Shown one piece after another: positions 723 through 41,299 of a stretch of 64,000 nt of DNA. The notes under the pieces are model-generated. The model saw only the letters and a program-made list of their open reading frames with translations, had not been told where the DNA came from and did not search any database. Position numbers and translations under genes: made by a program. Positions within the stretch are counted from its first letter, which is position 1. Every line of letters starts with the position of its first letter. This DNA comes from an uncultured Candidatus Saccharibacteria bacterium (GTDB lineage: Bacteria > Patescibacteriota > Minisyncoccia > Phycocordibacterales > Phycocordibacteraceae), in assembly GCA_964638585.1 (NCBI GenBank), contig CAZXAN010000001.1, positions 108,372 to 172,371 on the forward strand, written 5' to 3'.

Positions 723-2780
723 ATGGTACGCGCTAGCGATTCAAAACGTGTCGGTATCTGGATTCGGGTTTCAACCGAAGACCAGGTAAGGGGCGAAAGC
801 CCGGAAACCCATGAGCGCCGAGCTCGGCTCTACGCCGAAGCCAAGGGCTGGAATGTCATCGAGGTCTACCGCCTCGATGCTGTTTCCGGCAAGACGGTCA
901 AGGAGACGCCGGAAGCAAAGAAGATGCTTGCCGACATCAAGTCGGGGCACATCACAGGACTGATTTTCTCCAAGCTCGCCCGCCTTGCTCGGAACACCAA
1001 GGAACTGCTCGAATTTGCCGAGTTGTTCCGGGAATCCGATGCCGATCTCATCTCCCTCGCGGAATCGATTGACACCTCAACCCCCGCTGGCCGTCTCTTC
1101 TACACCATGATCGCGGCGATGGCTCAGTGGGAGCGTGAGGAGATTTCTGCGCGCGTTGCAGCATCTGTCCCCATCCGCGCAAACATGGGCAAACCAACGG
1201 GCGGTCAAGCGCCATACGGCTACCAGTGGAAGGACAAGAAACTTATCCCTGATGATAAGGAAGCACCAGTTCGCAAACTCATGTATGAACTATTCCGGGA
1301 GCACAAGCGGAAGAAGGCCGTTGCGCGCATCCTCAACGAGAAGGGTTATCGGACTCGGAACGGCTCGAAATTCTCGGACACCACCGTTGACCGTCTGCTC
1401 CGCGACTCCATCACGAAAGGCGTCCGCCGCGCGAACTACACCCGATCAAGCGACAGCAGCAAGGCCTGGGAGTTGAAGCCGGAGAGCGACTGGGTACTAC
1501 AGGAGGTTGAAGCTATCGTCCCGGAAGACCTCTGGAACGAGTGTAATGCGTTTCTGGACGCGCAGCGGGAGAAAGGGAAACGCACCACTCAGCCGACCCT
1601 CCATCTCTTCGCAGGGCTCACGTATTGCGCCTGCGGGCCGAAGATGTATGTCCCGTCGAAGAGCCCCAAGTACACCTGCCAGAAGTGCCGGAACAAGATT
1701 CCAAAGGACGACCTCGAAGCCGTCTTCATCGAACAGATCAAGCATTTCTCAGTTTCGCCGGACGAGATCAGCGCGCACTTGGAACGGGCGAACACCACGA
1801 TTCACACGAAGGCCGAACTTCTTAAGGTCCTCGAATCTGACCGCCAGAAGCTCACTGGCGAGATCGACAAACTTCACGACCTCTATCAGTCCGGGATGAT
1901 CGACAAGCACGGATTCGGTGCGAAATATCACCCCTGGGCTGACCGCCTCCGCCAGCTTGACGAAGAAATTCCTGCTGCCCAAGCCCAGCTCGATGTGATG
2001 AAGATCGGCCACCTTTCCGAAGAAGAAATCGTCTTCGGAGCGAGAGACCTCTATGAGCGGTGGCCCAAGCTCCCGGCCGAAGAAAAGCGTCGGATCATCG
2101 AGGCCATTACCGAGAAAATCATCGTCGGCAAGGACGAGGTTGAGATCAACCTCTACTATGCCCCTCCGCCTTCGGCGTCGGGGCATAGTGGCGGAAGCCC
2201 AAATAGATCAGGGGGTAGCGTTCCCCCTAATACCCCCTTAGATCGCAGCAAAAGAGCAATGAATACTCAGGGTTGCGTTGCTCTTTTGCAACGCGTGCCC
2301 GTTCGGCTTAAAGCATTGAAACCAAAGGAATTTGATTTTGAGCCCCAGACGATTGGGGATCATATCCGCAAACGCCGGCTCCTGCTCAAGCTCACCAAGA
2401 AAGCCGTAGCCGGCATTCTGAAGGTCTCCCAGTTCTCCATAATCAACTGGGAACTGGGGAGATTCCAACCATCGAACGTGTCCACGCTGCACCGCATCAT
2501 CAAGTTTCTCGGCTATGACCCCTTGCCCGTAGGCTGCACCATTCTGGAGCGGCTTCGCCAAAAGCGCCGGCAGATGGGCTGGGGTCAACGGGAGCTTGCC
2601 GAGCACTTTGGAGTGGACCGCTGCACGGTTACTGGGTGGGAACTCGGCGGCACGATCCTCAAGCGCTCGCACCGGTCGATGGTGGCCCGTTTCCTCGGCC
2701 TGGCTGAGGCTGATTTAATGGGCGAAATGGCAGACCGCTGGAACAAAAACCATGGCAAGCGCACTGTGCGTAAACCGTAG
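723..2780 (+). CDS. large serine recombinase (resolvase/invertase N-terminal domain, recombinase domain, zinc ribbon, C-terminal tandem XRE-like HTH)
   Basis: N-terminus VGIWIRVSTEDQ...SPETHE with catalytic Ser context, SKLARLARNTKELLEF resolvase motif, Cys-rich ribbon CACG...CQKC, C-terminal HTH-like repeats. Confidence 0.9.
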   Translation: MVRASDSKRVGIWIRVSTEDQVRGESPETHERRARLYAEAKGWNVIEVYRLDAVSGKTVKETPEAKKMLADIKSGHITGLIFSKLARLARNTKELLEFAELFRESDADLISLAESIDTSTPAGRLFYTMIAAMAQWEREEISARVAASVPIRANMGKPTGGQAPYGYQWKDKKLIPDDKEAPVRKLMYELFREHKRKKAVARILNEKGYRTRNGSKFSDTTVDRLLRDSITKGVRRANYTRSSDSSKAWELKPESDWVLQEVEAIVPEDLWNECNAFLDAQREKGKRTTQPTLHLFAGLTYCACGPKMYVPSKSPKYTCQKCRNKIPKDDLEAVFIEQIKHFSVSPDEISAHLERANTTIHTKAELLKVLESDRQKLTGEIDKLHDLYQSGMIDKHGFGAKYHPWADRLRQLDEEIPAAQAQLDVMKIGHLSEEEIVFGARDLYERWPKLPAEEKRRIIEAITEKIIVGKDEVEINLYYAPPPSASGHSGGSPNRSGGSVPPNTPLDRSKRAMNTQGCVALLQRVPVRLKALKPKEFDFEPQTIGDHIRKRRLLLKLTKKAVAGILKVSQFSIINWELGRFQPSNVSTLHRIIKFLGYDPLPVGCTILERLRQKRRQMGWGQRELAEHFGVDRCTVTGWELGGTILKRSHRSMVARFLGLAEADLMGEMADRWNKNHGKRTVRKP

Positions 2781-3030: not shown

Positions 3031-4239
3031 TTGGGCGCTTACGCAAGTAATCCTCGGCGTTTCTGGCGCAACGAGTTAACTGCGGATGTGACTGCTATGA
3101 CACCAGAATTCGAAAAACACGTCTCGATGGTATTCGCATGGCTGCAAGCAAGGCCAGTTACACCGAAAAGCATCGTCCTCGATGGCCCGGAAGCGATAGC
3201 GATAGCTTCGGCGACCGGTATGCGCTCCGAAAATCAAGATCGAGTTGCTTTAGTTCGCGTAAGCAATCAAGCTTCTATCGGTGCGAATGTCCAGGCTGCA
3301 GTTCTATTAGACGGCATTGGAGGCATGGCGGATGGGGCCAGTGCCGCATCTCTGGCGTTAGCGTCATTCTCGATATACCTAGCGTTCGGTGATTGCGCGC
3401 GGGGACTAAAGAGCCTCATTATGGAGGCCGCTGAATTTGCTAACGACGTTGTTTATCAGCGCTATCGCGCCCGTGGGGGCACCACGCTAACGGCGGTACT
3501 TTTTGGCAGACAAGGCGCGGTAGGGCTGAGCGTGGGCGACAGTCGTGCCTACATTTGCTCAAAAGCTGGCCTCAGACAATTATCAGAAGACGATACGTTA
3601 TCTGGCCATCTGGGCAACGCGAGTAAAAAGCTGGATCCTTGGCGTTTCCCAGACTCGATTGATAACCGACTATCTCAATTTGTAGGCATGGGAGAAGGTA
3701 TCCAACCACATCTAATCGCCCTTCCGGCCTATGACAGCGCGGAAAGCGAAGCGACACTTCTCCTCATGACTGACGGCGCATATTTTGTGGGTCAGCAGAT
3801 TCTAGAGGTCTTGCTCAGACAAAAATCCGATCCTTCCGAGCTTGCGCAGCGGATTCTTACGATGGCCGAATGGCTGGGCGGCAATGATAACGCATCAATT
3901 GCTGTCGTCCCAGCGCGACCTCAGTTTATAGAAGAACGTTCTGATAGTTCGGCGACACGGCTATCGCTCAGCGCACGCGGTGATACGTTTGCTTTAGTTG
4001 CTTCCGGTAAGATCGAATGGGGCAAGTCGAATGAACATGATCAAGAAGGTGCCCCTCCCTCGAAACAATTAGAAGTAACACCAAGGGTCCGCGAGCAAAC
4101 ACCTTACAACGCAGCGAAGGCCAAGATTAACTATCAACCCGCCACGACTCGCAAAAAAAGCCATAGGAAGTCCGGGCGCACAAAACAAAAGCAACAGAAC
4201 GAAAGCTTGCTGCTGGAATTGGTTTCCGACAAAAAGTGA
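3031..4239 (+). CDS. PP2C-family Ser/Thr protein phosphatase with basic low-complexity C-terminal tail
   Basis: PPM motifs: RSENQDR, VLLDGIGGMADG (DGxGG), GDSRAY, NGGNDNASIAVV; stop overlaps start of next gene. Confidence 0.85.
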   Translation: MGAYASNPRRFWRNELTADVTAMTPEFEKHVSMVFAWLQARPVTPKSIVLDGPEAIAIASATGMRSENQDRVALVRVSNQASIGANVQAAVLLDGIGGMADGASAASLALASFSIYLAFGDCARGLKSLIMEAAEFANDVVYQRYRARGGTTLTAVLFGRQGAVGLSVGDSRAYICSKAGLRQLSEDDTLSGHLGNASKKLDPWRFPDSIDNRLSQFVGMGEGIQPHLIALPAYDSAESEATLLLMTDGAYFVGQQILEVLLRQKSDPSELAQRILTMAEWLGGNDNASIAVVPARPQFIEERSDSSATRLSLSARGDTFALVASGKIEWGKSNEHDQEGAPPSKQLEVTPRVREQTPYNAAKAKINYQPATTRKKSHRKSGRTKQKQQNESLLLELVSDKK

Positions 4240-5291
4240 ATTTTCCGCCGAGATATGTCGTAGAAAGTGGCCCCGTTAGCGGCGGTTTCGGCACTACCCA
4301 TATATGTAATGACTTGCATCTCGCTCGAAAGGTCGTGGTTAAGGAGATTTCAGACAAAACAGAGATGAAGCGGCTAATCGACGAAATCGTAGCACTACAG
4401 CAGGTAAAGTCACGTCATGTGGTTCAAATTTACGATTTGATTATTGATAATGCCAGTGGGAGCCTAGCCCTTGTCGAAGAATTTCTGCCAAATGATGACC
4501 TGATGCATTTTTCAATGTCGGGTTATTCGGTAAAGGGCTACTATGACGCGCTCTATCAAATCTCGTCTGGTGTTCGGGATATTCACGCTTGTGGCATCGT
4601 TCATAGGGATTTGAAGCCCAACAACATGAAGCGGGATCAGGATGGCGCAATAAAGATTTTTGATTTTGGTCTCGCGAAGATTGCACCACTCCCCAAGAGC
4701 ACATCTGTCTTAGTGGGGACGCCTGGGTTTATGGCCCCAGAGTTATTCGAAATGCCTCCAAAGATCGATTTTCCGGTGGACGCTTTTGCGTTTGGTGCGA
4801 CCGCGTTTTTTCTTGCATGTGGGACCTTATACGCAAACGCACCGAAGGGATTTAGCCCACCGCCGCCGCTTCCTGCGGGGGAATCTATCGCGAATCACGT
4901 TGCGGTAACACCAACCATTGCCGACCTGATCGACGGATGCCTTGCTTCTGACCCTAGCATTCGGCCAAAGCTCGCTGATCTTGCAACGGCGCTTAAGCGC
5001 GAATTGCTCGTGGATCGACACCGTGCGCTCGTGGCAGATGGCTCCAGTTCGCTGATCTTGGACAAGGACAGTAGAAAGGTCAGAGCTAGGCGTGGCAAAT
5101 CTGATTCCGTCGAGATTGAGTATGACGGTTATTATTTTAAGATTTCCGAAATTGTCGGTGCCGTTTCAATTAATAACAAGACGGCAACTATTGGCGATGT
5201 ACTTAGTGGATCCCACGTTATTGTACTTGGTGCTGCAGGCATTCGACGGTTTGTCACATTTGACGTTAGTCATCCTGAGGTCCTTGCATGA
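4236..5291 (+). CDS. Hanks-type Ser/Thr protein kinase with about 90-aa C-terminal extension
   Basis: VVVKEI (VAIK-like), HRDLKPNNM catalytic loop, DFGLAK, APE motif; GTG start overlapping upstream stop, ATGA overlap with next gene. Confidence 0.85.
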   Translation: MNFPPRYVVESGPVSGGFGTTHICNDLHLARKVVVKEISDKTEMKRLIDEIVALQQVKSRHVVQIYDLIIDNASGSLALVEEFLPNDDLMHFSMSGYSVKGYYDALYQISSGVRDIHACGIVHRDLKPNNMKRDQDGAIKIFDFGLAKIAPLPKSTSVLVGTPGFMAPELFEMPPKIDFPVDAFAFGATAFFLACGTLYANAPKGFSPPPPLPAGESIANHVAVTPTIADLIDGCLASDPSIRPKLADLATALKRELLVDRHRALVADGSSSLILDKDSRKVRARRGKSDSVEIEYDGYYFKISEIVGAVSINNKTATIGDVLSGSHVIVLGAAGIRRFVTFDVSHPEVLA

Positions 5292-6373
5292 GTCATTTGC
5301 TGCAGGACGGTCAAAAGCTAGGGGGCAGATATGAGATTGTCTCGTTTCTAGACGCAGGTGGAATGCAAGAAGTCTACGTCGCACTCGACCATCTTCTGAA
5401 TCGCCATGTAGCTCTGAAGACACCTTTCACCAAGTCGGGGGAGAAGCGATTTAAGAGGAGTGCCGTACTCGCAGCGCGCATCAATCACCCAAATGTCGCA
5501 AAAACACTTGACTATTTTGGCGGGGATGGGCCGGAAGTGTTAATCGAGGAACTTGTAAACGGTCGCAGTGTAGAGGCGTTGCTCACGGACAAATATCTTT
5601 ACTTTGATCCGTCCCTAGTCGCCCAATTCGGCCATCATTTCAGCAAGGCACTTCAGGCTTCTCATCACGTAGGTGTAGTTCATAGAGATTTAAAGCCCAG
5701 TAATATAATTGCTGAATCTATTGAAGGGAGCTACGAATTCAAAGTTACTGATTTTGGAATCGCTCGTCTGGTGGAACACGAACTGGAAGATTCAACCGAT
5801 GCTAATGAATCATTAGGAACGGCTGGATCGTCAACGATCGTCGGGGCATTACCGTATATGGCCCCTGAGATGATCGAGACACCCAAAAAGACCGATAAGC
5901 CGGTAGATATTTGGGCTTTTGGCGCGATTCTTTATCGCATCATGACTGGCAACTACCCCTTTGGAATTGGTTTGGCAGCGGTACCCAAGATTTACGAGGC
6001 GAAGCCACCGCCGAAGCCAGCTCTAATCAATCAGTTGCTCCAATTCCGCGTTTTGGGAAATACAATTTGGGATATCGCCATTCGGTGCATGTCGAAGGAT
6101 CCGGCCCAACGACCGGATGCCGATCATCTTGTGGAGCAATTTTCAAATCTTTCTTACAGCGATAAGCCCCGGATCAATGCGACTATCTCAAGTTTCAGGC
6201 CGAAGGGATATGCTTGGGGATATCTCAGCTCTGGCTTAGATGCTTACTTCTTTCACCGAGATAGCTTTTACGGCCCCCTAGATCTTATCCAGGTTGGAGC
6301 AAAAGTATCCTGTTGCATTAATCCCGGGGGAGGCAATGACCGTGCACACCCAGTGTTACCTCTTAAGAGCTAA
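5288..6373 (+). CDS. Hanks-type Ser/Thr protein kinase with C-terminal cold-shock-like (OB-fold) domain
   Basis: VALKTP, VVHRDLKPSNII, TDFGIARL, YMAPE; C-terminus KGYAWGYLSSGLDAYFFHRDSF...GAKVSCCINPGGGNDRAHPV resembles CspA-type CSD. Confidence 0.8.
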   Translation: MSHLLQDGQKLGGRYEIVSFLDAGGMQEVYVALDHLLNRHVALKTPFTKSGEKRFKRSAVLAARINHPNVAKTLDYFGGDGPEVLIEELVNGRSVEALLTDKYLYFDPSLVAQFGHHFSKALQASHHVGVVHRDLKPSNIIAESIEGSYEFKVTDFGIARLVEHELEDSTDANESLGTAGSSTIVGALPYMAPEMIETPKKTDKPVDIWAFGAILYRIMTGNYPFGIGLAAVPKIYEAKPPPKPALINQLLQFRVLGNTIWDIAIRCMSKDPAQRPDADHLVEQFSNLSYSDKPRINATISSFRPKGYAWGYLSSGLDAYFFHRDSFYGPLDLIQVGAKVSCCINPGGGNDRAHPVLPLKS

Positions 6374-6432
6374 CAAGAACCACCGACAAGTCTAAAGAGG
6401 GTCTTTTCTGTCACACCGTCGGCGGGCCCGAC

Positions 6433-6825
6433 ATGGTGAGCAACATGGATATATTCAATGACCTAAGGATTACCGGTCTCGATGAGGCGTCCTCACATAT
6501 CGAAGAGAAGGGAAACTCGGAATTTCACCTATCGCTTTCAACGCCGCCGCTAGGCGAATGGGTCATCTGCTTTCAGAACGCGTGGTCACACATCTTTTAC
6601 AATACCAAGGTCCGTGCCGATGTATCTGGTGGCAGTATCGTAGTCGAATGTCACCATTCAACTTTGAACGAACACATTCAATATCTCAAAGAAGCCATTG
6701 AGGAAGCGAATCGCTCATGCAGAGAGCAGCATGCTGCGTATATAAACCAGCAGTCCGCGGAAAATCGAGAAGAACAAAAGCGCCAGAAGATATTGGCTGA
6801 CGTGAAGAGGAATCTGAAACTATAG
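6433..6825 (+). CDS. hypothetical protein, last gene of phosphatase-kinase operon
   Basis: 130-aa ORF 60 nt after kinase 2, same strand; no recognisable motif. Confidence 0.4.
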   Translation: MVSNMDIFNDLRITGLDEASSHIEEKGNSEFHLSLSTPPLGEWVICFQNAWSHIFYNTKVRADVSGGSIVVECHHSTLNEHIQYLKEAIEEANRSCREQHAAYINQQSAENREEQKRQKILADVKRNLKL

Positions 6826-6970: not shown

Positions 6971-9751
6971 TTAATCGTTTTTCTTTTGCTTCGTAAGCGA
7001 CCGTGCAATCACTTCCGCAATCGCCTGCCTTCGTGCGCCCGCATCCTTCGGATCTACCACCTGCTGCACAGTACGCACCTTGTACCCGCGAACGGTCTGC
7101 TCTGTAGGTGGCGGGGCTGCGCCCAATGAGTCGAGGTATTCGGTTAGGCTCTCCGGCACGATGTATCGCACCTTGCCCTGCTCGCGCTCGTCCAGATTCT
7201 CTTCGACGAACTTGGCAAGGGCTTTGATGTGCCGCTCATTGCTTCCGACCAACACAACCTCGGTGTAGCCGGCGGCCAGACACTTTTCGACATTGCCGAG
7301 CTCATGGTCCTGATTTGTCGTCACCGATATCTCGCAGGCGATTCGACTCGCGCCGCGGACGAGTGACACGTCAACACGGCCGGCGCCGTCAAGGATCGTT
7401 TCCTCGATCGATGCCCGGAATCCTCGCTCTTCCGCGAGCTGCTTAAAGAGATGCTGCAGGTACTTGTGCTGCTGACCGCCGCGTCCCGATTCCGGAATGG
7501 TCTTCTGGACCTTCGTCGTCTTGGCCTTTACTTCCGTCGTCGGCTTGGGCGCAACGGAAATGGTCACTTGCTCAGGTTCGGCAATGGACGGTGCCGGCTC
7601 CGGCGCGGTCAGTATCTCAGGCTCGTTTGTCGGCGCGGCTTCCTGAACACGCTTCGCTAAACCCTGAGCTACGGGTGCAGGTCGTGTCCCTCGAGGCGGC
7701 GTCGGCGAGGGAGTGTAGGAGGGTAACACTGGCGGCGCGCTGTACCGCTCTCGATTATCTTCAAGCAACGCTTCCTGCTCCCTAGCTTCGAGCGTCGGCA
7801 GTGCCTCGACAAAGCCAAGCGGTATCGTCACCGAAAGAGCCTTGTTCGTGTAGTTCTTCACGTGGCAGGCAAATTCGGTGTGATTCCGCTGTTTCTTTTG
7901 CGACAACAAGAACGCCGCATCGCAACGGAACTCCGAATCGAGCGCGCTGGCGTCCTTGGCACTCAGTCCTCCGGCAAACTTGATAGTAGTGCTTGCGAGC
8001 ACGCTTGAGCGCAGTCCCGCGCCGAGCTGGTCGAGGTTCTGGTGCGCAAAGATTAGACCGACGCGGTACTTCCTGGCTTGGTTGAGAAGATGAGAAATGT
8101 TCTCGTCAAAGTAATCCTGGGCTTCGTCGATGTACACGAAGCTCGACTGGCGCTTGTACGCGGGTATGGCGGCCCGCTGCACCGCCGCCTGGGCGATCAA
8201 GGCAATGAAGAAGCGGCCGAAGATGGCGGACCCTTCTTGTCCCAAGAGGTCTTTGGCCGTATTGATGAGGATGATCTTGCCTTCGTTCAATAGCTCGAAG
8301 ATATCGATCTTGTTTCGAGGGTGCGAAAACATCCGCTCAAGGGATGCGTTGGACAAGACACCCCATAGGCGCGTCAAAATTTGCTTCTTGGTCTCATTGA
8401 ACTGGCGATCAAAGAATCGTGTCTCAAAAAAGCTCCGAGCCGTTCCGGTGAGCTTCGCCATGTATGGTCGGAACCGCTCGCTGTCTTCCATGAGTTCCCG
8501 GAGCGTGTGAATGGTGGCATCCGGTATTTCAATCAGCAGGCGCGCCAGATACTTGAAGATGAGTCCCTGGCGTTGGGTAAGCTCGGCGCCGAGAAGCGCC
8601 CCGAAGAAGTATTCGTAGAGTTCAATCGTCGCGTTGAGTATCTTTTCCCGATCAACCGGGGCGTATCCCGAAAGACGGTCTCGGTTGAAGTCGAACATGT
8701 TGAGACATACGGGGTGCTCGACATCGTTCGGATCGACCAGGACGAAGCGGTCGGCAAGGCTGCGAGATGCGGACGGGCTGAAGTATGAAAGGCGGGAAAT
8801 GGTCCGGATGAGGTCGCCCTGGCTATCCATCACCACGACCGAGCGGTTGTCCTCCTGTGCCCGTACCAAGTCATGATTGATGAGAAACTGCATGAGCTGC
8901 GTCTTGCCGTGCCCGGTACCGCCAACGATGTGCGTGTGCTCGAAGCGCGCCGGAAACGGGATGGCGAACGGTAAGGGAGCATGGAAAAAGCGAATGAACG
9001 GCGTTGCTTGCAGGTATGCCTCAATGAGGAATTCGGGAGACTGGTTCTTCTGCTGCGAGGGCAGCTTGGCCTTTCCCGCTGCCTCATGAAATTTTTCTGG
9101 AGGAATGCCAGAGGCGTGCAGGGCATTCAGGTCGAATCGCTCGCGCAGCGTCTGAAACAGGTTGGCATTGGCCACGTCCTGATCGAAGAACGTGATCAGC
9201 AGCCGATCTATGACTTCAGGAATGTTGTCGCATAGGTCATACGCCTTTGCTTCCGGCAGCACCACTGAATCATCGGCGGCGACGCCCTTCTCATCGATGT
9301 CGGTGAAGGCGGAGAGCGGGAGGTATCCGAGAATGCCGGAAAACAGGTACACGAGCTTGTCGCGCCAGATGGTAAGGAGGCGCTGCTGATCGGCGATGAA
9401 GCGCAGGTGGCGGTTGAGGGTCTTGCGAAGTTCGACGCCCTCTTCCATGGTGAGGTGCTCAAGGGACGATTCCTCGGGAAGCTCGACCATGAACCCTTCA
9501 AGGTACAAGAGGCCGGTAATCGCCGACCATAATGCCTCACCGAGCGGAATGGAGGGCGTGACGCCCCGCATTTCGCAGATTTCGTGAATAAGGTCGAGCA
9601 GGAAATTGGCCCTCTTTTTGTCGCTGCCAAGAGGCGATGCGTCGCGCGCCTGTTTGACCCGCGCGTAGAGCTCGGCCATCTCCCGAAGCTCGCGTTCGCG
9701 AGCCGATCCGAGGAACGTGTCCTGAAACCAGTTCCAGGCGTTAGTGGACAC
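6971..9751 (-). CDS. TraD/VirD4-like (T4CP-type) P-loop NTPase with N-terminal extension and C-terminal nuclease-like domain
   Basis: Walker A HIVGGTGHGKTQ, MDSQGD (DPxG-like), Walker B FVYIDEAQ, AHQNLDQL; C-terminal RVDVSLV...ACEISVTT...GYTEVVLV reminiscent of restriction-endonuclease-like fold; paralogue of 10175..11377. Confidence 0.7.
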   Translation of the reverse strand: MSTNAWNWFQDTFLGSARERELREMAELYARVKQARDASPLGSDKKRANFLLDLIHEICEMRGVTPSIPLGEALWSAITGLLYLEGFMVELPEESSLEHLTMEEGVELRKTLNRHLRFIADQQRLLTIWRDKLVYLFSGILGYLPLSAFTDIDEKGVAADDSVVLPEAKAYDLCDNIPEVIDRLLITFFDQDVANANLFQTLRERFDLNALHASGIPPEKFHEAAGKAKLPSQQKNQSPEFLIEAYLQATPFIRFFHAPLPFAIPFPARFEHTHIVGGTGHGKTQLMQFLINHDLVRAQEDNRSVVVMDSQGDLIRTISRLSYFSPSASRSLADRFVLVDPNDVEHPVCLNMFDFNRDRLSGYAPVDREKILNATIELYEYFFGALLGAELTQRQGLIFKYLARLLIEIPDATIHTLRELMEDSERFRPYMAKLTGTARSFFETRFFDRQFNETKKQILTRLWGVLSNASLERMFSHPRNKIDIFELLNEGKIILINTAKDLLGQEGSAIFGRFFIALIAQAAVQRAAIPAYKRQSSFVYIDEAQDYFDENISHLLNQARKYRVGLIFAHQNLDQLGAGLRSSVLASTTIKFAGGLSAKDASALDSEFRCDAAFLLSQKKQRNHTEFACHVKNYTNKALSVTIPLGFVEALPTLEAREQEALLEDNRERYSAPPVLPSYTPSPTPPRGTRPAPVAQGLAKRVQEAAPTNEPEILTAPEPAPSIAEPEQVTISVAPKPTTEVKAKTTKVQKTIPESGRGGQQHKYLQHLFKQLAEERGFRASIEETILDGAGRVDVSLVRGASRIACEISVTTNQDHELGNVEKCLAAGYTEVVLVGSNERHIKALAKFVEENLDEREQGKVRYIVPESLTEYLDSLGAAPPPTEQTVRGYKVRTVQQVVDPKDAGARRQAIAEVIARSLTKQKKND

Positions 9752-9752
9752 G

Positions 9753-10139
9753 TTACTTCAGCTCGATCACTTCCTCGCCGCCAAAGGTGGCGGCTGCCTC
9801 CAGCACGTTCTTGAAGGTCTGGGCAGCTTCCTTGATCTGATCCTCGACCGCAAGCATTTCAACGATATCTTTGCAATCGATTTTCTTGCCTCCCTGCAAG
9901 TCATTGACCGACACCGAGATATTCATCATCTTGAAGGCAAGCCGTGAGGCGAGCCCCAATAGCCCGCTACCTTTATCGATAATCTTGTCACGCTCATAGA
10001 GCATCGTGTCGCCGAGCTTATATTTGCTGATATTGTTCTTTTCCTCGGGCGTAAGTTCGGAGCGGACCGTGAGCGTGAACGTGATTTTGCCAATGCCGAT
10101 AATTCCCGATTTCTGGTCCCGCCGTAGCAATAATTTCAT
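9753..10139 (-). CDS. hypothetical protein between the two ATPase paralogues
   Basis: 128-aa ORF; 3-nt spacing to downstream gene, operon context. Confidence 0.4.
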   Translation of the reverse strand: MKLLLRRDQKSGIIGIGKITFTLTVRSELTPEEKNNISKYKLGDTMLYERDKIIDKGSGLLGLASRLAFKMMNISVSVNDLQGGKKIDCKDIVEMLAVEDQIKEAAQTFKNVLEAAATFGGEEVIELK

Positions 10140-10174
10140 TGTTGCATCCCTGTGGGTTATGGACCGCCCGGTTA

Positions 10175-11377
10175 TTATGCTCCCGACATTCCCTGAATCT
10201 CAAGACCCATCGGGTGCAGCGTTGTTGCGCTAAAGGGCTTGCTCGGCGACCCATCAATCATGAGCTTCAGATAGATGTCATGGTTGGCCAGATTCACCAG
10301 GTCTTCGGGGACGAACACCGGCTCAAATTCCTGGGCGAAGATCCGCGCATCCTCGGGGCCAAGGCGGAAGGAAATAATGGTGCCGACGTTGCCGAGCACC
10401 GCATGCCGAACCTCGGGCTCCAATTGGTATAGATGCTGGTGAGCGAGAATCAATCCCACATGGAACTTGCGCAATTCCGACACCATGTTTGCTACCGACA
10501 AGGTGGTAAAGCTTTGGAATTCGTCGATCAATACTATGAAGTCCGGCCTACCTGATTCTTCAGTATCGGCCCGGCTGAAGGCCGCCAAACCCAGTGTCGT
10601 CACCAGAAGCGCACCCAAAAGGTTGGCACTGTCCTCGCCTAAGCGCCCTTTGGCCAGGTTGACGATGAGAATCTTCCCCTCGTCCATGATTTGCCGAAAA
10701 TGAAGGTCAACCGTTGGAGTGGTAAACATCCGGTAGAGGCGCGGGTCGGCAAGAAAGGCGCCGACCTTGTTTTGAATCGGGGCGATGGATTCCTGGCGAT
10801 ACCGAGGGTTATAGTTTGGGAATTCCTTGGCCCAGAACAGCCTCACCTGTTCGTTTTTGACGCGACCGAGCACCTGGTTTCGAAATGATTTGTCGGTGAG
10901 CATTCGCAAGATGTCTGGAAGCGTAGCATCGCCGGCTTCAATGAGTGCGAAAAGCGTGTTTCTTAGGATGTGCTCCATCCTCACTCCCCAGGCTTCATCC
11001 CACAGTTTTTTGAAAGCTTCCATGAGGCCGGACGCTGCGAGCGGTATTCTGTCCGTTTGCACGCGGCGCAATGGGTTGTATCCGAACCGCTGAGAAGTGT
11101 CCGGGGCATTCAGGTAGATGAGGTCGCGCTCGCGCCACCGGGGAACCTGCGCGACAAGCCGTTCGGCGAGATCCCCGTGGGGATCGATCACCGCCACTCC
11201 GCGCCCGCGCATCATGTCTTGCAAGGCGACAGTTTCTAGAAGCGTCGTTTTTCCTGTTCCGGTCTTGCCGATGGCGTACGTATGAAAAAGCCGGTCGGCC
11301 TGCTTTATGCCGAAGGTCCGGTGCGGGTTACGCGCGTTGGTTATTGCGAAGTATGAAATAGTTGGGTTCCTGAGCAT
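10175..11377 (-). CDS. TraD/VirD4-like (T4CP-type) P-loop NTPase, ATPase core only
   Basis: Walker A AIGKTGTGKTT, VIDPHGD, Walker B FIVLIDEFQ, LILAHQHLYQL; about 35-40 percent identical across the core to the 921-aa backbone protein at 55791..58556. Confidence 0.75.
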   Translation of the reverse strand: MLRNPTISYFAITNARNPHRTFGIKQADRLFHTYAIGKTGTGKTTLLETVALQDMMRGRGVAVIDPHGDLAERLVAQVPRWRERDLIYLNAPDTSQRFGYNPLRRVQTDRIPLAASGLMEAFKKLWDEAWGVRMEHILRNTLFALIEAGDATLPDILRMLTDKSFRNQVLGRVKNEQVRLFWAKEFPNYNPRYRQESIAPIQNKVGAFLADPRLYRMFTTPTVDLHFRQIMDEGKILIVNLAKGRLGEDSANLLGALLVTTLGLAAFSRADTEESGRPDFIVLIDEFQSFTTLSVANMVSELRKFHVGLILAHQHLYQLEPEVRHAVLGNVGTIISFRLGPEDARIFAQEFEPVFVPEDLVNLANHDIYLKLMIDGSPSKPFSATTLHPMGLEIQGMSGA

Positions 11378-11513
11378 TTACCCAGCATAGGTGCCGGTCG
11401 GGAAGGAAGCACGGCAGAGAAACGTGCCTCACGCGCACATTCTCGCGTCGTGTGCTCGTGAAGTGTGTGCGAAATGATGAATGTCGGATCGTTCTTTATG
11501 AAAGGAAGCCGAC

Positions 11514-12080
11514 ATGGATTACTTAGATCATTCAGATGTGAAATTATTGGGGGTGCTTGTAGGGGAAAAGACCGCTCAGCGGCTGTATCAGGGAAGCTTG
11601 GTATCGCTCTTTGCAACGGGATCGATTGGTCAGGAGATGCATCCGAGAATTGCAGCAGCTCGGGAACTGGTAAAGCGAGTGCTAAAGGAGGAGATGAAGC
11701 GTGGTGCCATGCTGTCGAGCCCGGCTGCCGTGAGGGAGTACCTTCGGCTTCTCTTGATCGGGAAGGAGTATGAGGTGTTCGTAGTGCTTTTTCTCGACGC
11801 GCAGAACCGTATGATTGAGGCTGAAGAACTATTCCGCGGGACACTCACGCAAACGTCGGTGTATCCCCGGGAGGTAGTGAAGCGCGCGCTCTATCACAAT
11901 GCGGGGGCGGTAATCTTCGGCCATAATCATCCCTCCGGCGTAGCGGAACCGAGTCATGCGGATGAAGCCCTGACACAAGCCCTCAAACAGGCGCTTGCTC
12001 TTGTTGATGTGCGGGTGCTCGACCATTTCATCGTGGCCGGCAACGGAGTGATGAGCTTCGCCGAAAGGGGGTCGATATAA
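11514..12080 (+). CDS. radC: RadC-family JAB/MPN domain protein
   Basis: N-terminal HhH-like region, JAMM motif [15 protein letters not shown]; divergent from ATPase operon. Confidence 0.9.
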   Translation: MDYLDHSDVKLLGVLVGEKTAQRLYQGSLVSLFATGSIGQEMHPRIAAARELVKRVLKEEMKRGAMLSSPAAVREYLRLLLIGKEYEVFVVLFLDAQNRMIEAEELFRGTLTQTSVYPREVVKRALYHNAGAVIFGHNHPSGVAEPSHADEALTQALKQALALVDVRVLDHFIVAGNGVMSFAERGSI

Positions 12081-12181
12081 CCTCAGTCGAGTGATCAAAG
12101 CTCTAGACCTACCTACCGGTAGGTCTCATTTTTTTGATACCTATCGCGGCCTTTTGTTTGAAGTACGCAAAGCGGCACACT

Positions 12182-13114
12182 CTAGACCATTGCCGCTTCT
12201 ATTTCGTTGAGGATAAGAAAAATATTTCTAAGAATCCCCCAGAAAAAGCCGGCAAGCCCGACTGTAAGGACACCAACAATCCCAAGAAGTGGGAAATATA
12301 TGAATCCCTCCCCAAATATCGCGGTTTCGTAGCCAATAATATTAAACGACACCGTACCTAATATCGCAATAAGCAGTGCAAGAGCAACACCTAGCAAGGT
12401 GGACCATTTCTGGTGACAACGTTCCAGTGCAGAAGCAGTCGGGTTTGTTCCGCTACCGGTCCTTGGGAGCACTGAAATTCGATGTAAGAAATCCATCAGC
12501 GTTAATAGCATCGCAAACAATACCCCAACACTTGCATAGAATTTAACGTTCTTGTGAGGCAGCTCTATTGCAAAAAGGATTGCAGCAAATGACAGCAGCA
12601 CCAGCAGAAAAATGGAGAAAAACCGTGCCAATATCCCCCTCCTAAAAAAAGTAGAAATGAGTGCAAGGGCAAAAATAGTCAACGCGCAAATCACCGCCGT
12701 AGCGTAGAAAAATTTGCGCGGCGATAAGTCTTGTGCTGCCTTCATTTTTTCAATGTAATCCAATGCTATGAGCCGCTTCTCCTTCAAGCGATCATAGAGA
12801 ACACTCGACGAGCATCCGATTCCTTCCGTTGACTGCTCCTTGGCAACTTGCCGGCTCGGGGGTTTGGTAGGCTCCTTGCGCATCGCTCGGATGTGTTCCG
12901 CACGGCACTCCGCCCTTTCAGCTTCAACAAAAGATTCTTTAAATTCCCGGATCACTAGGTGCCCCGCTGCCTCGGCCGCCTTAAACAAATCTTTGTTCTC
13001 CTGGTCGTACCAATAGGGAGCACCCATAAGTATGCAGAAGAATAGAGTGAACCATATGCACAGCGACATGGTGTAGCCCCCAGAGGTCGACTGCCGGTCG
13101 TACCAAGCGTTCAT
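12182..13114 (-). CDS. polytopic membrane protein, function unknown
   Basis: multiple hydrophobic helices; likely start MNAWYD at 13112-13114 overlapping stop of upstream DedA-like gene. Confidence 0.5.
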   Translation of the reverse strand: MNAWYDRQSTSGGYTMSLCIWFTLFFCILMGAPYWYDQENKDLFKAAEAAGHLVIREFKESFVEAERAECRAEHIRAMRKEPTKPPSRQVAKEQSTEGIGCSSSVLYDRLKEKRLIALDYIEKMKAAQDLSPRKFFYATAVICALTIFALALISTFFRRGILARFFSIFLLVLLSFAAILFAIELPHKNVKFYASVGVLFAMLLTLMDFLHRISVLPRTGSGTNPTASALERCHQKWSTLLGVALALLIAILGTVSFNIIGYETAIFGEGFIYFPLLGIVGVLTVGLAGFFWGILRNIFLILNEIEAAMV

Positions 13115-13779
13115 AGCTCCTCCGATCCCGAAAATATGTGTTTCGCAAAATAAAACAGAACTAGCGATACAGCGCCTACGGATACTGCCACCGCGATGGT
13201 GTATTGAAAGGCGAAATCTCCAAACAGATAACCGAGGCCGGTCCAAATCATCACCCAGATACTAATCCCGCATATGGAACTCGTAGAAAACGCGATATGG
13301 CTCATTCGACTACACCCAGCAGGGTAAGAAGCTATAGAGCGGGCTACAGGAACAAGTCTGATAAGTACAACCCGTAACCAACCTTGCTCTCTGAAAGACC
13401 TAACCAGAACAGGCATCCAGGCCGTATATGTATATGCGAAAATGTACCACCAACGCTCCCGATAGTTTTGCACTCTCTTCCAGATCGGCGTCATAGATGA
13501 TTTCGCATCGCGTAACCCTACCAAATACCAAAGAGTGGTACCTAGGTGATTTGAAATAATCGCTAAAGCGACAAACGTTGATGGATTAATGTCATGCGCG
13601 ACTGCGTACATTCCAGCGGCCACACAGATATATTCACTCGGCGGTATCATGATTGAAGAGTTCAAAAACATCAACACCACGACCAGTACGGCTACAAATA
13701 AGGGACTGGGGAGAGAGAATACTGTGCGGACTGTCCCCTCGATGTCCATCAGCCTGTATAGGTCAAGAACTACCTCCAT
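13111..13779 (-). CDS. DedA/VTT-family-like membrane protein
   Basis: hydrophobic profile and LIRLVPVARSIASYPAG segment resembling DedA R-x-x-P-x-x-R region; internal start MEVVLDLY chosen. Confidence 0.5.
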   Translation of the reverse strand: MEVVLDLYRLMDIEGTVRTVFSLPSPLFVAVLVVVLMFLNSSIMIPPSEYICVAAGMYAVAHDINPSTFVALAIISNHLGTTLWYLVGLRDAKSSMTPIWKRVQNYRERWWYIFAYTYTAWMPVLVRSFREQGWLRVVLIRLVPVARSIASYPAGCSRMSHIAFSTSSICGISIWVMIWTGLGYLFGDFAFQYTIAVAVSVGAVSLVLFYFAKHIFSGSEEL

Positions 13780-14477
13780 CCCGGCCTTCCAGCGGCAGGC
13801 ATTGCGACAAAGGCTATCGAGGCAAGGACGAACAGAATCAAGCCTAAGTATGATAAGGAGGAACCGATCGACACCGTACAGGCAGGAATAAGGAGCGAAA
13901 TTGGAATGATGCCCTTCCACTGCAAAGCCGCGCAGCTCCGTTTTACTAAAGATGACACCTTCGAAGAACAGTCTTGCGCAATGTTCCCATACGGGTCCAT
14001 GCATGGGGCTGGCATCCACTTGACTAGCGAGCGTTCATCTTCACGAATGCTTTTCGAATAGAGCATACTCGTGAGATATTTCCTTTCTTCCTTGGTGATA
14101 TGTTTCGCGGTCTTGTGCAGCACGATTTCAATAGCATTAAATTGGGGTCCAAAAAAATGGGATACAAAGGCCCTGCCAATCTCCAATTCCGCAAAAATGC
14201 GGTCCCTATAAAACCTGATGTGCACTTCATTGTTCCCGTCATATGGCAGCACCAATCCAGCAAGCTGAGAGTCATATATGTATTGCCAAGGGGTCTCTCT
14301 GAAACCTATTTGTTTTAGCTTTTCGTATAGTTTCAGAGAAATGGGATCTTTTAATAAACGACCAGCAACAATACGTGGTGAGAGAATGCCAAATGAGCGT
14401 AGGCGGCGTTTCATTGCCCGGACCTGTAATTTTCCGGTCGCATGGCGACTATCACTTAGTGCTGTTTGCATTAGCAT
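13770..14477 (-). CDS. hypothetical protein, first gene of membrane-protein operon
   Basis: 235-aa ORF whose stop overlaps DedA-like start; no recognisable motif. Confidence 0.35.
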   Translation of the reverse strand: MLMQTALSDSRHATGKLQVRAMKRRLRSFGILSPRIVAGRLLKDPISLKLYEKLKQIGFRETPWQYIYDSQLAGLVLPYDGNNEVHIRFYRDRIFAELEIGRAFVSHFFGPQFNAIEIVLHKTAKHITKEERKYLTSMLYSKSIREDERSLVKWMPAPCMDPYGNIAQDCSSKVSSLVKRSCAALQWKGIIPISLLIPACTVSIGSSLSYLGLILFVLASIAFVAMPAAGRPGWR

Positions 14478-14883: not shown

Positions 14884-15591
14884 CTACAGTACATTCAAAT
14901 CGTCGAAATCCGCAATTGCTGTGGTGTCCGGTACGCGCCTTGCGATAAAGAGGCCGACGACGGGGACGTTTGGATACCTGGTGTTCAGCACCCGTTTCAT
15001 TGCCGTGAAGTGACAGCCCGTCGTAAGGACGTCATCAAACAAAAAAATGGTTTGCGGGGCGGGTTCTGCCACCGATTCCTTTATTTCATAGTTAGCAACC
15101 AGGTCGTCCGGTCTTGGTCGAATGTCGGTGTCATGCGCAGGCTCGACTGATTTCGTTTGCACCACGAGTTCGCGGATATCTGCGTTGCGACCTCGCTCGA
15201 TTTGCTGGAGCATCTGCAACATCCGATTATCATATTCGGGATGATCGGTGGCCTTCGAAGGTGGAATGGGAACAAGGGTGATCTGGGGCAGCGCATCTTC
15301 GCGGATGGCGTCCCGAAATATGGACGCGGCGCGCGCAATCGCCTGCTCTTTGTAGCGCCACTCCGGTCGACCCCGCCGCATCGGACTTTTCTTGAAATTG
15401 ATGATTAGTCCGTTCGTTTCGCTAAACGCATAGCCTTTTCGGGCAGTGTACTCTCCCCAGTAGTAGCATGTGTCCTCTGGGCTCAGGTAGTAGTGATCTG
15501 GGCGGACGAGATCATCAATCAGTTGCAGTCGCGCCAAGATGTCCCCTGATATCGTCGTAGCCTTGGACCCGAATGGCCCCTTGTGCCTCAA
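14884..15591 (-). CDS. ComF/ComFC-like phosphoribosyltransferase-domain protein, no zinc finger
   Basis: PRTase type I motif IFLFDDVLTTGCHF near C-terminus; overlaps stop of dprA-like gene. Confidence 0.75.
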   Translation of the reverse strand: MRHKGPFGSKATTISGDILARLQLIDDLVRPDHYYLSPEDTCYYWGEYTARKGYAFSETNGLIINFKKSPMRRGRPEWRYKEQAIARAASIFRDAIREDALPQITLVPIPPSKATDHPEYDNRMLQMLQQIERGRNADIRELVVQTKSVEPAHDTDIRPRPDDLVANYEIKESVAEPAPQTIFLFDDVLTTGCHFTAMKRVLNTRYPNVPVVGLFIARRVPDTTAIADFDDLNVL

Positions 15592-16420
15592 AGCGCCGGG
15601 GCCAAGTCAATGCAGAGTTTCGGAAACAACTATCAAGGATGAAAAGTTTTCGTCCTTGGGCCAGTGCGGCACGGGCCTGAGTCAGCGTGCCCGAGGTCTC
15701 ACCGGCTTCAATAATAATCGTGGCTTCCGTGAGCGCAGACATCGTGATGTTACGTTCTGGGAAGAACAGCCGATTGCCCTTATACGTCTGCTGTGCGTAG
15801 CGGCATACCGGAACCTGACTTATTAGGAGATAGTTCTCAGCGATTTGCCGTTGAAGTTCGGCGTTCTCGGTCGGGTAGATCTTGTTTAGTGGCGTGCCGA
15901 TTACCGCGATGGTGAAGCCCTTGCTTTCAATTGCGGTCGTGTGAGCGACCGTATCGATCCCTTTCGCCAACCCAGAGACTATGCCGAATTTGTCTTTGAC
16001 TAATAACTTGACCATTTTTCGAGCACGGCGAATCCCGTCCTCGGACGGAGTACGTGTCCCGACTATGGCGACAAGTCGCGGGTGGTTCACCAAGTCCCAC
16101 CAACCTTGGTAATACAACATCTCAATGGGATGCCAGGCATCCCGCAGGCGTTCGGGATACTCGCCCGCACCGTGTACGCGAACGCCAAATTTGTGAATAC
16201 CTGCTTTCGCAAGGAACCTGAGAGTCTTTTCGGCGAAACTCTCTGCTTCTGCTCGGGGGACAAAATTTGATGGAACCGCATTCGCTTTCTTGCGAAACAT
16301 ATCGGCGATTGACTTGAAAGACGCACCGTTTCTGTCCCAGAGTGCTTCATATGCCCCCAACTCCCATAGCGGGGAGATCGGTGGTGATGTGAAACCGGCG
16401 TCAATCAGCGTATCAGTCAT
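15515..16420 (-). CDS. dprA: DprA/Smf-family (SLOG superfamily) Rossmann-fold protein
   Basis: VAIVGTRTPS, GIVSGLAKGIDTVAHTTAI, IAVIGTPLNKIYP, EAGETSGTLTQARAALAQGRKLFIL match DprA core. Confidence 0.85.
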   Translation of the reverse strand: MTDTLIDAGFTSPPISPLWELGAYEALWDRNGASFKSIADMFRKKANAVPSNFVPRAEAESFAEKTLRFLAKAGIHKFGVRVHGAGEYPERLRDAWHPIEMLYYQGWWDLVNHPRLVAIVGTRTPSEDGIRRARKMVKLLVKDKFGIVSGLAKGIDTVAHTTAIESKGFTIAVIGTPLNKIYPTENAELQRQIAENYLLISQVPVCRYAQQTYKGNRLFFPERNITMSALTEATIIIEAGETSGTLTQARAALAQGRKLFILDSCFRNSALTWPRRFEAQGAIRVQGYDDIRGHLGATATD

Positions 16421-16603
16421 CGTAATATCACCAAAGAGAGAGATTGCGAGCTATGCAGTTAGTCACGCGACTACCGCGATGAGGATCAGGAGTCAAGTCA
16501 GCAATGCGCTAAGAGGTTATACGCCACAACGCTCGCCCATTCCAGAAAGCTTTGCCCGCGATAGGATTCGAATCGGGAACGATTGATAAATGTACATAAT
16601 GCA

Positions 16604-16939
16604 TCACTTACTTGCTGAACCAAGCAGCCACATCAGTGCGGCCACGACACCTGCCCCGACGAGCAAATTCTTCACGTGTTCCCGTGCTGCCTCTTGCTGC
16701 TTGTCGGCGGTGGATTGGAACTGGCGCATAAGCGCGACTTGATACGCGCTCGGCTTAAGGACACCACGTTCCCATTTACTCACGGTCATGGCATGCGTGT
16801 CGAATAGTTGTCCAAATTCAACTTGTGACAACCCGAGGGCCCGGCGGAGCGTCGCGACATCAAATGCAATCATAAGCCTGATACTAACCCAATTCGTAAG
16901 CCTACGCTTAGCTCTTTTTCTCAGCAAGAGCGCGAACAA
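16604..16939 (-). CDS. XRE-family HTH protein with C-terminal transmembrane anchor
   Basis: LRRALGLSQVEFGQLFDTHAMTVSKWERG HTH plus C-terminal hydrophobic LLVGAGVVAALMWLLG. Confidence 0.6.
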   Translation of the reverse strand: MFALLLRKRAKRRLTNWVSIRLMIAFDVATLRRALGLSQVEFGQLFDTHAMTVSKWERGVLKPSAYQVALMRQFQSTADKQQEAAREHVKNLLVGAGVVAALMWLLGSASK

Positions 16940-17227
16940 TTTCCTAACGAGGCTTCTTCGCTCCAGACCGATGGGGCGAGCTAGGATGTCCGCCCGAATT
17001 TACCAATGTCAATGACACGCTGAGCGCCGCCACATTTGCTGCCCATCAACGAGACCGTGTACCAACAAACTCTAAGAATCTTTCAAATTGGCAGATTTGT
17101 CGCCGGCGAATACACCTGGAGCCTACCTTGCATCGCTGTTGAAGCGGTGCATGCCCGAACTGTCACGTCGCTCTTGGGCACGTTTTCACCTCTTTGATGT
17201 CACTTTCAGCGCTCCTACGCTCTCGCC

Positions 17228-17437
17228 ATGGACGACAAGGAAGCACAGCGCGTCCGGGAGGCTTATAAGCAAGAGTTTGGCGAAGACCTTACGGAAAAAG
17301 AAGCAAGTGTAATGCTCACGCAGCTGGTGCAGCTTTATCTTCACATCTCGCGCCAGTTGCCACCTGACACGTCCGGCAATACCGACACTCTCAAAAAATA
17401 CAGTCGCTTCTCTAATGGATCATTGATGGCGGAATAG
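17228..17437 (+). CDS. small conserved protein, repeated family A (MDDKEAQRVRE...LVQLYLHISR)
   Basis: one of 4-5 paralogous copies (also 20353, 36957, 41044, 48430) with conserved upstream DNA. Confidence 0.5.
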   Translation: MDDKEAQRVREAYKQEFGEDLTEKEASVMLTQLVQLYLHISRQLPPDTSGNTDTLKKYSRFSNGSLMAE

Positions 17438-32667: not shown

Positions 32668-32752
32668 CATCGGCGGCGTTCCGCCGCGACCGGCGCAATT
32701 CCGTCGCTATCGAAATCCCAAACGTCAAGGACGGGGATTTGGCGACGGATAC

Positions 32753-32760
32753 GAATAATT
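32753..32760. repeat. 8-bp target-site duplication GAATAATT, right copy, IS66 element
   Basis: matches 29813-29820. Confidence 0.7.
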
Positions 32761-32925
32761 GATAATGTCTCCAGTAGCTCTGGGTCGCGGGCGTTGTATA
32801 AAGTTCTAATTCTGTCCAAGGCTCCGCGCCTTTCTCGATCCCTCTTGCACTCAAAGGTCCGCACGTCGGTCGCCAGTCAGGAGGTCATGCCACGATCGAC
32901 AAAAGGTTATAGAGACGTTCGATCG

Positions 32926-41289: not shown

Positions 41290-41299
41290 GCAGCCTGTT

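Follow-up and report, generated by a model that had tools for sequence, protein, structure and literature searches.

A coupling protein-like ATPase operon with a nuclease-type tail as a candidate mobilization core of serine-recombinase islands

What is the role of two ATPases that resemble type IV coupling proteins (T4CPs) on an island in which no type IV secretion system (T4SS) is found? The question is raised by the minus-strand operon A400-S128-B926 at positions 6971-11377 of a 64,000-nucleotide stretch of DNA from an uncultured Candidatus Saccharibacteria bacterium (GenBank assembly GCA_964638585.1, contig CAZXAN010000001.1, forward-strand positions 108,372 to 172,371), the whole of which is referred to here as the window. 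We hypothesize, with a probability of about 50%, that the operon and its divergent RadC-like neighbor form the DNA-processing and mobilization core of islands with a serine recombinase and without pore genes, i.e. integrative and mobilizable elements (IMEs), and that the C-terminal tail of B926 stands in the place of a relaxase. The operon most likely helps the island to borrow the conjugation pore of another element.

Based on the list of open reading frames (ORFs) and their translations, this region of the minus strand holds three genes. The first in the operon, A400 (10175..11377), encodes a stand-alone T4CP-like ATPase domain of 400 amino acids (aa) without a membrane anchor. It is separated by 35 nt from S128 (9753..10139, minus strand), which encodes a conserved small protein of 128 aa and whose stop codon overlaps the GTG start of B926 (6971..9751, minus strand). 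The 926-aa product of the latter is a soluble T4CP-like ATPase with three further parts after an N-terminal domain. Because of the short gap and the overlap of stop and start, the three genes look like a single operon. An earlier account made from the sequence alone (the sequence-only reading) had described the two ATPase genes as adjacent; their strand and coordinates hold, but S128 lies between them. S128 had been overlooked, as had the true upstream neighbor, a divergent RadC-like JAB-domain gene (11514..12080, plus strand; Pfam RadC, 3e-44). A 167-aa antisense ORF (11341..11844) is probably spurious. The operon proteins are at present labeled in databases as 'type IV secretion system DNA-binding domain-containing protein' or 'hypothetical protein'.

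The family assignment by hidden Markov models that had been proposed as a check was borne out: both ATPases pass the gathering score of the Pfam family TrwB_AAD_bind (PF10412; 20.5 bits), A400 with 32.3 bits over residues 32-335 and B926 with 26.5 bits, and both also match DUF87/HerA. In a search of the Protein Data Bank (PDB) with a profile of the A400 family, TrwB (3e-9) and DotL/IcmO (9e-9) were matched and HerA came lower, as the fourth match (3e-4), so that the HerA clade is not the best match. The nearest solved structures by profile are those of coupling proteins, and the two ATPases share the Walker A/B nucleotide-binding domain of TrwB of R388, VirD4, TraD and DotL. A third ATPase of this kind, C921 (55791..58556, plus strand; 921 aa), lies outside the operon and consists of an N-terminal region of ~500 aa without a family and an A400-type ATPase. 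Pfam matches of C921 are TraG-D_C and DUF87, and TraG-D_C, another T4CP-like trait, also occurs in the longer forms discussed below. The translations contain the motifs GKTGTGKT, DPHGD, IDEFQ and AHQHL in A400 and GQTGTGKT, DPHGS, IDEFQ and AHQFL in C921, and slightly deviant versions in B926 (GGTGHGKT, DSQGD, IDEAQ and AHQNL). The paralogy of the three, which the sequence-only reading had drawn from these common P-loop motifs with exact coordinates, was upheld by BLASTP: A400 is 28% identical to B926 over 355 aa (E 1e-30) and 38% identical to C921 over 384 aa (E 2e-82), while B926 and C921 are 25% identical (E 2e-27). By these alignments, similarity is far above chance, the three proteins are true paralogues, and C921 is nearer to A400 than to B926. 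No transmembrane-like segment was found in A400, S128, B926 or C921; the maximum of the Kyte-Doolittle profile in a 19-residue window was 1.36-1.57, within the ATPase core, compared with 2.5 for a DedA control. Unlike T4CPs, the operon ATPases have neither an N-terminal transmembrane domain nor a linked T4SS, and B926 is extended by an additional domain at its N-terminus and by a nuclease-like tail. On sequence grounds A400 and B926 belong to the coupling-protein clade as divergent and soluble members.

B926 falls into four parts. Its N-terminal helical domain (8972..9751, minus strand; residues 1-260) is kept across 23 homologues and had no Pfam match even at E 10; the sequence-only reading had put its length at 300 aa, which is too long by this boundary. 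The ATPase core (7757..8968, minus strand; residues ~262-665) shows long invariant runs in the alignment. It is followed by a low-complexity linker rich in Pro and Ala (7487..7756, minus strand; residues ~666-755, 85-90 aa), with gap-rich, poorly conserved columns and a low predicted local distance difference test (pLDDT) score at the start of the structural model. The last part is a well-conserved PD-(D/E)xK-like domain of ~170 aa (6974..7486, minus strand; residues 756-926). A restriction-endonuclease-like C-terminal segment had been proposed before; the fold stands by the modeling described next, and of the C-terminal 250 aa suggested for structure prediction the domain itself takes up the ~170 aa that follow the linker.

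The tail was modeled with AlphaFold2 from an alignment of 50 sequences, using B926 residues 738-926. The model has a pLDDT of 85 overall and of 93-97 over the core, whose elements follow the order alpha-beta-beta-beta-alpha-beta (DSSP H20-38, E42-49, E54-62, E65-72, H77-89 and E94-99). In a Foldseek search of the PDB all the best matches of the model were PD-(D/E)xK proteins (E from 2e-4, TM 0.39-0.45), among them AF1548, the R2 retrotransposon endonuclease domain, EcoT38I, Can2, R.BspD6I, Bax1, RecU, Hjc and Cas4. At the level of the predicted structure, this confirmed a PD-(D/E)xK-like, restriction-endonuclease-type fold for the B926 tail. A PDB sequence search with the tail alone gave no meaningful match, and a match of the B926 profile to NLRP5 was discarded as a low-complexity artefact. 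When a tail profile was searched against 1.84 billion representative proteins, the domain was found in 2062 clusters at 50% identity, and it is C-terminal in nearly all of the 150 matches listed. Pfam scanning of ten members of the tail family identified eight as T4CP-like ATPases, including forms of 1000-1250 aa; the other two were a fusion to an excisionase-type helix-turn-helix (HTH) and a short protein without a Pfam match.

Conservation within the tail is concentrated in a few polar residues. D794 and E817 are present in 147 of 147 representatives, E783 in 145/147, K823 in 141/147, E807 in 137/147 and S809 in 127/147, and H762 is present in 142 of 144; Y764, Q766 and C824 are also conserved. 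D794 and E807 lie in the strands expected for the catalytic D...(D/E)xK motif, and E817 and K823 are on the next helix. By sequence, the putative active site is non-canonical, with Ser in the place of the (D/E)xK Lys and a conserved Lys on the following helix. The pattern of residue conservation suggests that the tail is an active enzyme.

The wider context of the operon was examined in related loci, which were inspected over +/-10 kb. B926 homologues number in the thousands, and the 120 listed align with it along almost their entire length at 63-89% identity. With one genome scanned per species, the hosts of the family were Acidobacteria, several Gammaproteobacteria, Nitrosomonas, Nitrotoga, Lysobacterales and Hyphomicrobiales; the sequence-only reading had offered a lineage-specific DNA-handling machine, which does not fit a module spread over several phyla. 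In loci with a tailed B gene (long-B loci), the A400-S128-B926 block is intact in 13 of 13 and RadC adjoins A400 in 10, with identities across the 13 of 54-89% for B926 and 64-76% for A400. S128, also present in all 13, has 1542 homologues, of which the 120 listed are 79-92% identical and none has a Pfam domain; its AlphaFold2 model is unreliable (pLDDT 47). Both flanks differ among the 13 loci and include metal efflux genes, E1/E2-like modules, TIR with caspase, methyltransferases and transporters. A serine recombinase or an HTH-only relative of it lies 1-8 kb downstream of B926 in nine loci; a full recombinase in L010 is 62% identical to the one of the window, that of L024 shares its architecture at 682 aa, and the stand-alone HTH proteins match the C-terminal part of the recombinase. 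In six loci (L007, L009, L011, L013, L014 and L023), a C-terminal fragment of Mg-chelatase/ComM occurs near a recombinase-tail-like HTH gene, at ~15-21 kb in locus coordinates, which suggests that these six islands insert into comM and that the fragment is an element end. Apart from RadC, A, S, B and the recombinase or HTH gene, no gene was conserved across the 13 loci, the comM fragment in six excepted. Because the core is conserved, the cargo varies, and the distance from the integrase and the element end is fixed, the operon is read as the backbone of the element, unlike a roaming defense cassette. Cargo of the E1/E2/multiubiquitin type recurs near the operon (L004, L007/L022, L013 and L014) and was also seen on a Methylomagnum plasmid with a tail-less B gene.

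Sister elements without the tail bear on its role. Their B proteins (short-B, 691-699 aa) are 42-47% identical to B926 over residues ~180-715 and lack both the tail and residues 1 to ~180. Directly after short-B lies a Replic_Relax (PF13814) gene in L016, L017, L018, L026 (a Sulfitobacter plasmid), L029 and L030, and the two genes are linked and not adjacent in L019 and L025 (the Methylomagnum plasmid). No Replic_Relax homologue was found in any of the 13 long-B loci. Short-B elements also carry an A400 homologue (44-47% identity) beside a serine recombinase of 513 aa, and short-B is preceded by a 119-aa S-like gene. The latter aligns with S128 end to end and colinearly in hhalign (E 3e-4 to 1e-3, with low probability from the shallow profiles) and is probably, by this alignment, its homologue. 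The A, S and B genes thus travel together in both variants, and B bears the tail where a separate endonuclease-type relaxase is missing. RadC, DUF3768 and KlcB-like genes are associated with the transferred-DNA regions of plasmids and of integrative and conjugative elements (ICEs); RadC occurs in long-B loci, and DUF3768 and KlcB-like genes occur in short-B loci. In L030, ~10 kb hold a recombinase, A-like, DUF3768, KlcB-like, HTH, S-like, short-B and Replic_Relax, in that order, and so compact an element leaves no space for a T4SS.

The genes of the short-B elements are exactly those of published mobilization modules. PF13814 is the MOB_C relaxase family, and streptococcal IMEs of class 8 are made up of a serine integrase together with a MOB_C relaxase and a VirD4 coupling protein (PMC5357655). 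Mobilizable plasmids and IMEs that have their own VirD4 also carry MOB_C, and their coupling protein is probably substituted into the T4SS of a helper (PMC5704250). MOB_C relaxases, such as TraX of pAD1 and MobC of CloDF13, are related to restriction endonucleases (PMC6499999, citing Francia 2013), and so share this type of fold with the B926 tail; in the sister elements the MOB_C gene directly 3' of the B-type ATPase occupies the place of the tail. The long-B operon resembles IME class 8 and VirD4+MOB_C mobilizable plasmids in its T4CP-family ATPase, restriction-endonuclease superfold, serine recombinase and absence of a T4SS. It differs from them in several respects. Its nuclease forms one polypeptide with the ATPase and is not recognized as PF13814, two T4CP-like ATPases are present along with a conserved partner of 128 aa, neither ATPase has a membrane anchor, and the hosts are Proteobacteria and Acidobacteria, those described for IME class 8 being streptococci. 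By position and superfold, the tail may be a functional analogue of MOB_C rather than a member of that family, and its motif set (H-x-Y-x-Q ... E ... D ... E-x-S ... E ... K) is its own. In a comparison with CloDF13 MobB, similarity was limited to the Walker region; that record is poorly annotated and apparently frameshifted.

Mobilization is favored because the operon is the conserved core of the islands, because short-B and MOB_C occur in sister elements, and because T4CP/MOB_C/serine-integrase elements without a T4SS have been published. The sequence-only reading had considered a conjugative role doubtful, since relaxase, VirB4 and pilus genes were missing. Their absence was corroborated: no relaxase, VirB4, pilin or other T4SS family was found by Pfam among 70 ORFs of the window, i.e. 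nearly all those of at least 120 aa that do not lie inside a larger ORF. The doubt itself was not sustained, as the comparative context, with the operon at the core of recombinase islands and with sisters that pair short-B and MOB_C, points to mobilization. Of the features of an IME, its own integrase (723..2780) and the absence of a mating-pore family in the window scan were seen; by analogy with the short-B and MOB_C sister elements, the island would also have its own relaxase and origin of transfer (oriT) and would be transferred with the aid of a helper. In such a scheme, the serine recombinase would excise the island, and the nuclease tail of B926, possibly with the help of S128, would recognize and nick or cut a site on the element. 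A400 and B926 would then couple the cut DNA to the T4SS of a co-resident conjugative element, where they would replace or supplement the coupling protein of the helper. In this scheme we infer that the tail nicks DNA and has a target site, that the machinery interacts with the T4SS of a helper, and that A400 and B926 share the work between them.

Several observations weigh against mobilization. The reading does not account for the need for a second T4CP-like ATPase. Curated NCBIfam models of T4CPs score the ATPases far under their cut-offs (SXT_TraD 22-46 bits vs 366, conj_TOL_TraD 19-34 vs 648 and conju_CD1115 30-38 vs 250), and the membrane anchor of coupling proteins was sought by Kyte-Doolittle analysis and found in neither A400 nor B926. 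In the tail, Ser809 occupies the place of the (D/E)xK lysine, and one B926 sub-clade has Gln at position 807. Comparison of the tail with Replic_Relax/MOB_C in hhalign gave a probability of at most 2%, even with profiles of 147 and 126 sequences; shallower profiles were likewise negative, Pfam gave no match of the tail to PF13814 at E up to 10, and HMMER detected no similarity to MOB_C. The tail also has no region that matches the first ~100 residues of Replic_Relax. Because no sequence relationship was detected, the case for the tail replacing a relaxase is made solely from gene position and the shared superfold. A PDB search with the Replic_Relax protein found no matching solved structure. 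The inverted repeat upstream of A400 (11411..11451), described below as a candidate oriT-like site, sits at a promoter-operator position. A search for att-like repeats between the left end of the island and the rest of the window found none that were convincing, leaving the ends undefined. Finally, defense genes abound in the islands, and the best PADLOC match of the ATPases is a component of a defense system, mad8.

The last two points lead to the strongest rival, in which the operon is defense-island cargo directed against phages or plasmids: a pair of HerA/FtsK-superfamily motors would load on invader DNA and the fused PD-(D/E)xK domain would degrade it, after the manner of HerA-nuclease systems or of motors of the DndFGH/MADS type. 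The combination of an ATPase and a nuclease is an architecture known from defense systems, and B926 shares a motor of the same ASCE P-loop superfamily and a nuclease with HerA-NurA, defense HerA-nuclease pairs, DndH and mad8. In PADLOC, mad8 of MADS is the best match of all three ATPases (42-70 bits, with A400 at 70), followed by weak matches to HerA (E 3e-4 or weaker) and DndH. Conflict genes are plentiful in the window and related loci (NACHT, STAND-Mrr, SIR2-like, TIR with caspase, E1/E2-like and restriction-modification), and neither ATPase has the anchor expected of a coupling protein. MADS (mad1-8), however, is an eight-gene operon that includes a methylase, a specificity subunit and a kinase (10.1101/2023.03.30.534895). 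The mad8 profile, the only one of the system to match, does so partially and over the generic ATPase domain, and no methylase or specificity subunit adjoins the operon. Matches to the HerA, DndH and MADS systems in general are weaker than those to T4CPs and cover the ATPase core only, their partner genes are absent, and the context is that of a backbone. Defense genes usually diversify faster than the operon does, whose conservation across phyla is unusual (B926 63-89% and S128 79-92% among the matches listed). The operon also stays in a fixed relation to RadC, to the element end and to the recombinase or HTH gene, amid true cargo that varies, and its tail-less relatives adjoin a relaxase gene on plasmids and IMEs. 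An ATPase-nuclease conflict system, as the sequence-only reading had suggested, is therefore still a live rival with less support than mobilization, and we consider it rather unlikely.

Less probable again is a role in maintenance of the island. The operon might initiate replication, resolve or segregate the circle formed on excision, or process incoming DNA, and the tail would then be an initiator or resolvase. Motors of the FtsK/HerA superfamily act in DNA segregation, the Pfam name of the gene next to short-B is 'Replication-relaxation', the Holliday-junction resolvases RecU and Hjc are among the fold matches of the tail, and the inverted repeat that precedes A400 might serve as an origin-like site. 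Against this, the operon is not accompanied by a conserved replication initiator, partition protein or plasmid-like module, the ATPases are nearest to T4CPs and not to FtsK or ParA, and PF13814 proteins are classed as MOB_C relaxases (PMC5357655). We regard this role as quite improbable. 

The weakest alternative, that the two ATPases are ordinary coupling proteins of an unrecognized complete conjugation system elsewhere on the island or outside the window, i.e. of a self-transmissible ICE, draws on the several island ORFs without a family assignment and on the +/-10 kb to which inspection of related loci extended, and is very improbable given that Pfam detected none of the families VirB4, VirB6, VirB8-11, pilin and relaxase in the 64-kb window, in the ~5 kb to the left of it (L001) or in the called genes of ~20 related loci (the MOB_C Replic_Relax genes of short-B relatives aside), that only RadC, A, S, B and the recombinase or HTH gene are conserved across loci (with the comM fragment in six), that short-B elements of ~10 kb such as L030 have no room for a T4SS, and that neither ATPase has a membrane anchor. 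Because there is no linked T4SS or classical relaxase, we do not consider A400 and B926 to be ordinary T4CP genes of a conjugative element.

Mobilization thus remains the preferred reading, and a broader proposal can be built on it. It is possible, if doubtful, that the B926 family, with its ~2000 clusters at 50% identity, represents an undescribed class of conjugative enzyme in which a coupling-type motor is fused to its own PD-(D/E)xK 'relaxase' and has a small adaptor and another soluble T4CP-like ATPase as partners, allowing islands of Proteobacteria and Acidobacteria to hijack foreign T4SSs. TraB of Streptomyces, a membrane-anchored, FtsK-like translocase of double-stranded DNA with C-terminal winged-helix DNA recognition, moves an integrative element without a T4SS. 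In a more radical form of the proposal, and by analogy, the same machine might move double-stranded DNA without a dedicated T4SS, as TraB does. Both would be single motors with a C-terminal DNA-recognition module of their own; B926, unlike TraB, belongs to the T4CP clade rather than the FtsK clade, carries a nuclease fold rather than a winged helix and is not membrane-anchored.

No description of the operon was found in the literature (open-access papers and preprints). An IME module with its own coupling protein is already known; what is new here is that an endonuclease-type function is fused to a coupling ATPase and that a small partner and a further soluble paralogue of the T4CP type go with it. 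If the operon is a self-contained mobilization module, it would explain the spread between phyla of a widespread family of islands, members of which carry defense systems and, in related cases, metal-resistance genes. The fused motor-nuclease would then join a short list of non-HUH relaxase solutions, and the operon would be a marker for annotation pipelines. If it is a defense system instead, it would constitute a new ATPase-nuclease family of ~2000 clusters.

Two inverted repeats lie between A400 and RadC. The first is an imperfect 18-bp repeat (11411..11451, minus strand), at -75 to -35 from the A400 start, a position at which nine of the 13 loci have it. Across the aligned repeats 78.5% of cells are paired, compared with 35-47% for slid controls; nine pairs are changed on both sides, and the covariation score was reached by 0 of 500 shuffles. 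By this pattern the repeat is a candidate operator or oriT-like site, and because it overlaps the likely promoter the two are equally likely. The second repeat (GTCGG...N21...CCGAC, 11481..11515) is conserved in most loci and spans the ribosome-binding site and start codon of RadC, where it could form a hairpin for translational control. In a promoter and terminator scan of the operon, the number of sites was not above that of shuffled sequence.

In the window, the operon lies on a compositionally foreign island that extends from ~0.7 to 48 kb. The composition shifts at ~48 kb, and from ~48.7 kb housekeeping genes follow (Ham1, DHODH, DsbA, ZIP, DedA, C921, FKBP, TGT and UvrB), which suggests that the shift is the right border of the island. 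Near the left end, the large serine recombinase (723..2780, plus strand; 685 aa) matches NCBIfam models of the CcrB/CcrC/XisF type and Pfam Resolvase and Recombinase, and is the probable integrase. It ends in two XRE-type HTH domains (residues ~525-680), which in other loci are stand-alone genes; this suggests that integrase and regulator have undergone fusion or fission.

Between the recombinase and B926 (3031..6825) lie a PP2C phosphatase, two Ser/Thr kinases and a 130-aa GOLD-like protein. The kinases match PADLOC PD-T4-6 and mad6 (up to 1e-49), and generic kinase models match equally well. Because the block is found only in this window's copies of the island, it is cargo, and it may be a kinase-based defense or signaling module; a tie between the PP2C and kinase genes and the operon, considered from the mad6 matches, was rejected as these genes are absent from all other loci. 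Beyond the operon and RadC, a cluster at 15515..19085 encodes DprA-like, MqsA-like HTH, DUF6527 and E1-like ThiF-DUF6791 proteins. Large conflict-type proteins are encoded at 25057..27789 (NACHT with FGE-sulfatase, 910 aa) and at 38225..44417 (Mrr_cat-STAND-TPR, 924 aa, and a ResIII/SNF2-like helicase, 972 aa). The segments 30608..36190 and 44483..46295 contain insertions of IS66 and IS21 (IstA/IstB), which are of high GC content, as well as a group II intron and the reverse transcriptase that belongs to it (Rfam RF02001, RF01998 and RF00029). ImmA/IrrE, SIR2-like and MazF genes are also present, and ORFs without a family assignment include 12182..13246, 13770..14477, 14884..15591 and 47492..48253. 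The island is a mosaic of nested mobile elements.

Comparison with phages and plasmids gave few relatives. No plasmid or phage was matched when the region was searched by megablast. In IMG/VR the family alignment detected no relative among 2.9 million viral contigs, a result that speaks against descent from a phage or satellite. Three matches to phages were obtained with tblastn, all of them remote. One record deposited as a phage (L028, Microcystis phage Mwe-JY31, PP438423.1; 22 kb) has at 10786..13562 a B-like gene of 620 aa followed by a gene of 299 aa, with a ParA-like gene near, and may be plasmid-like rather than viral.

C921, a paralogue on the chromosomal backbone with the housekeeping neighbors FKBP, TGT, UvrB and DedA, may represent the same motor in a domesticated or host form. 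Its residues 203-917 match phrog_5156, a family with no assigned function, and C921-related forms of 1000-1250 aa bear the B926-type nuclease tail.

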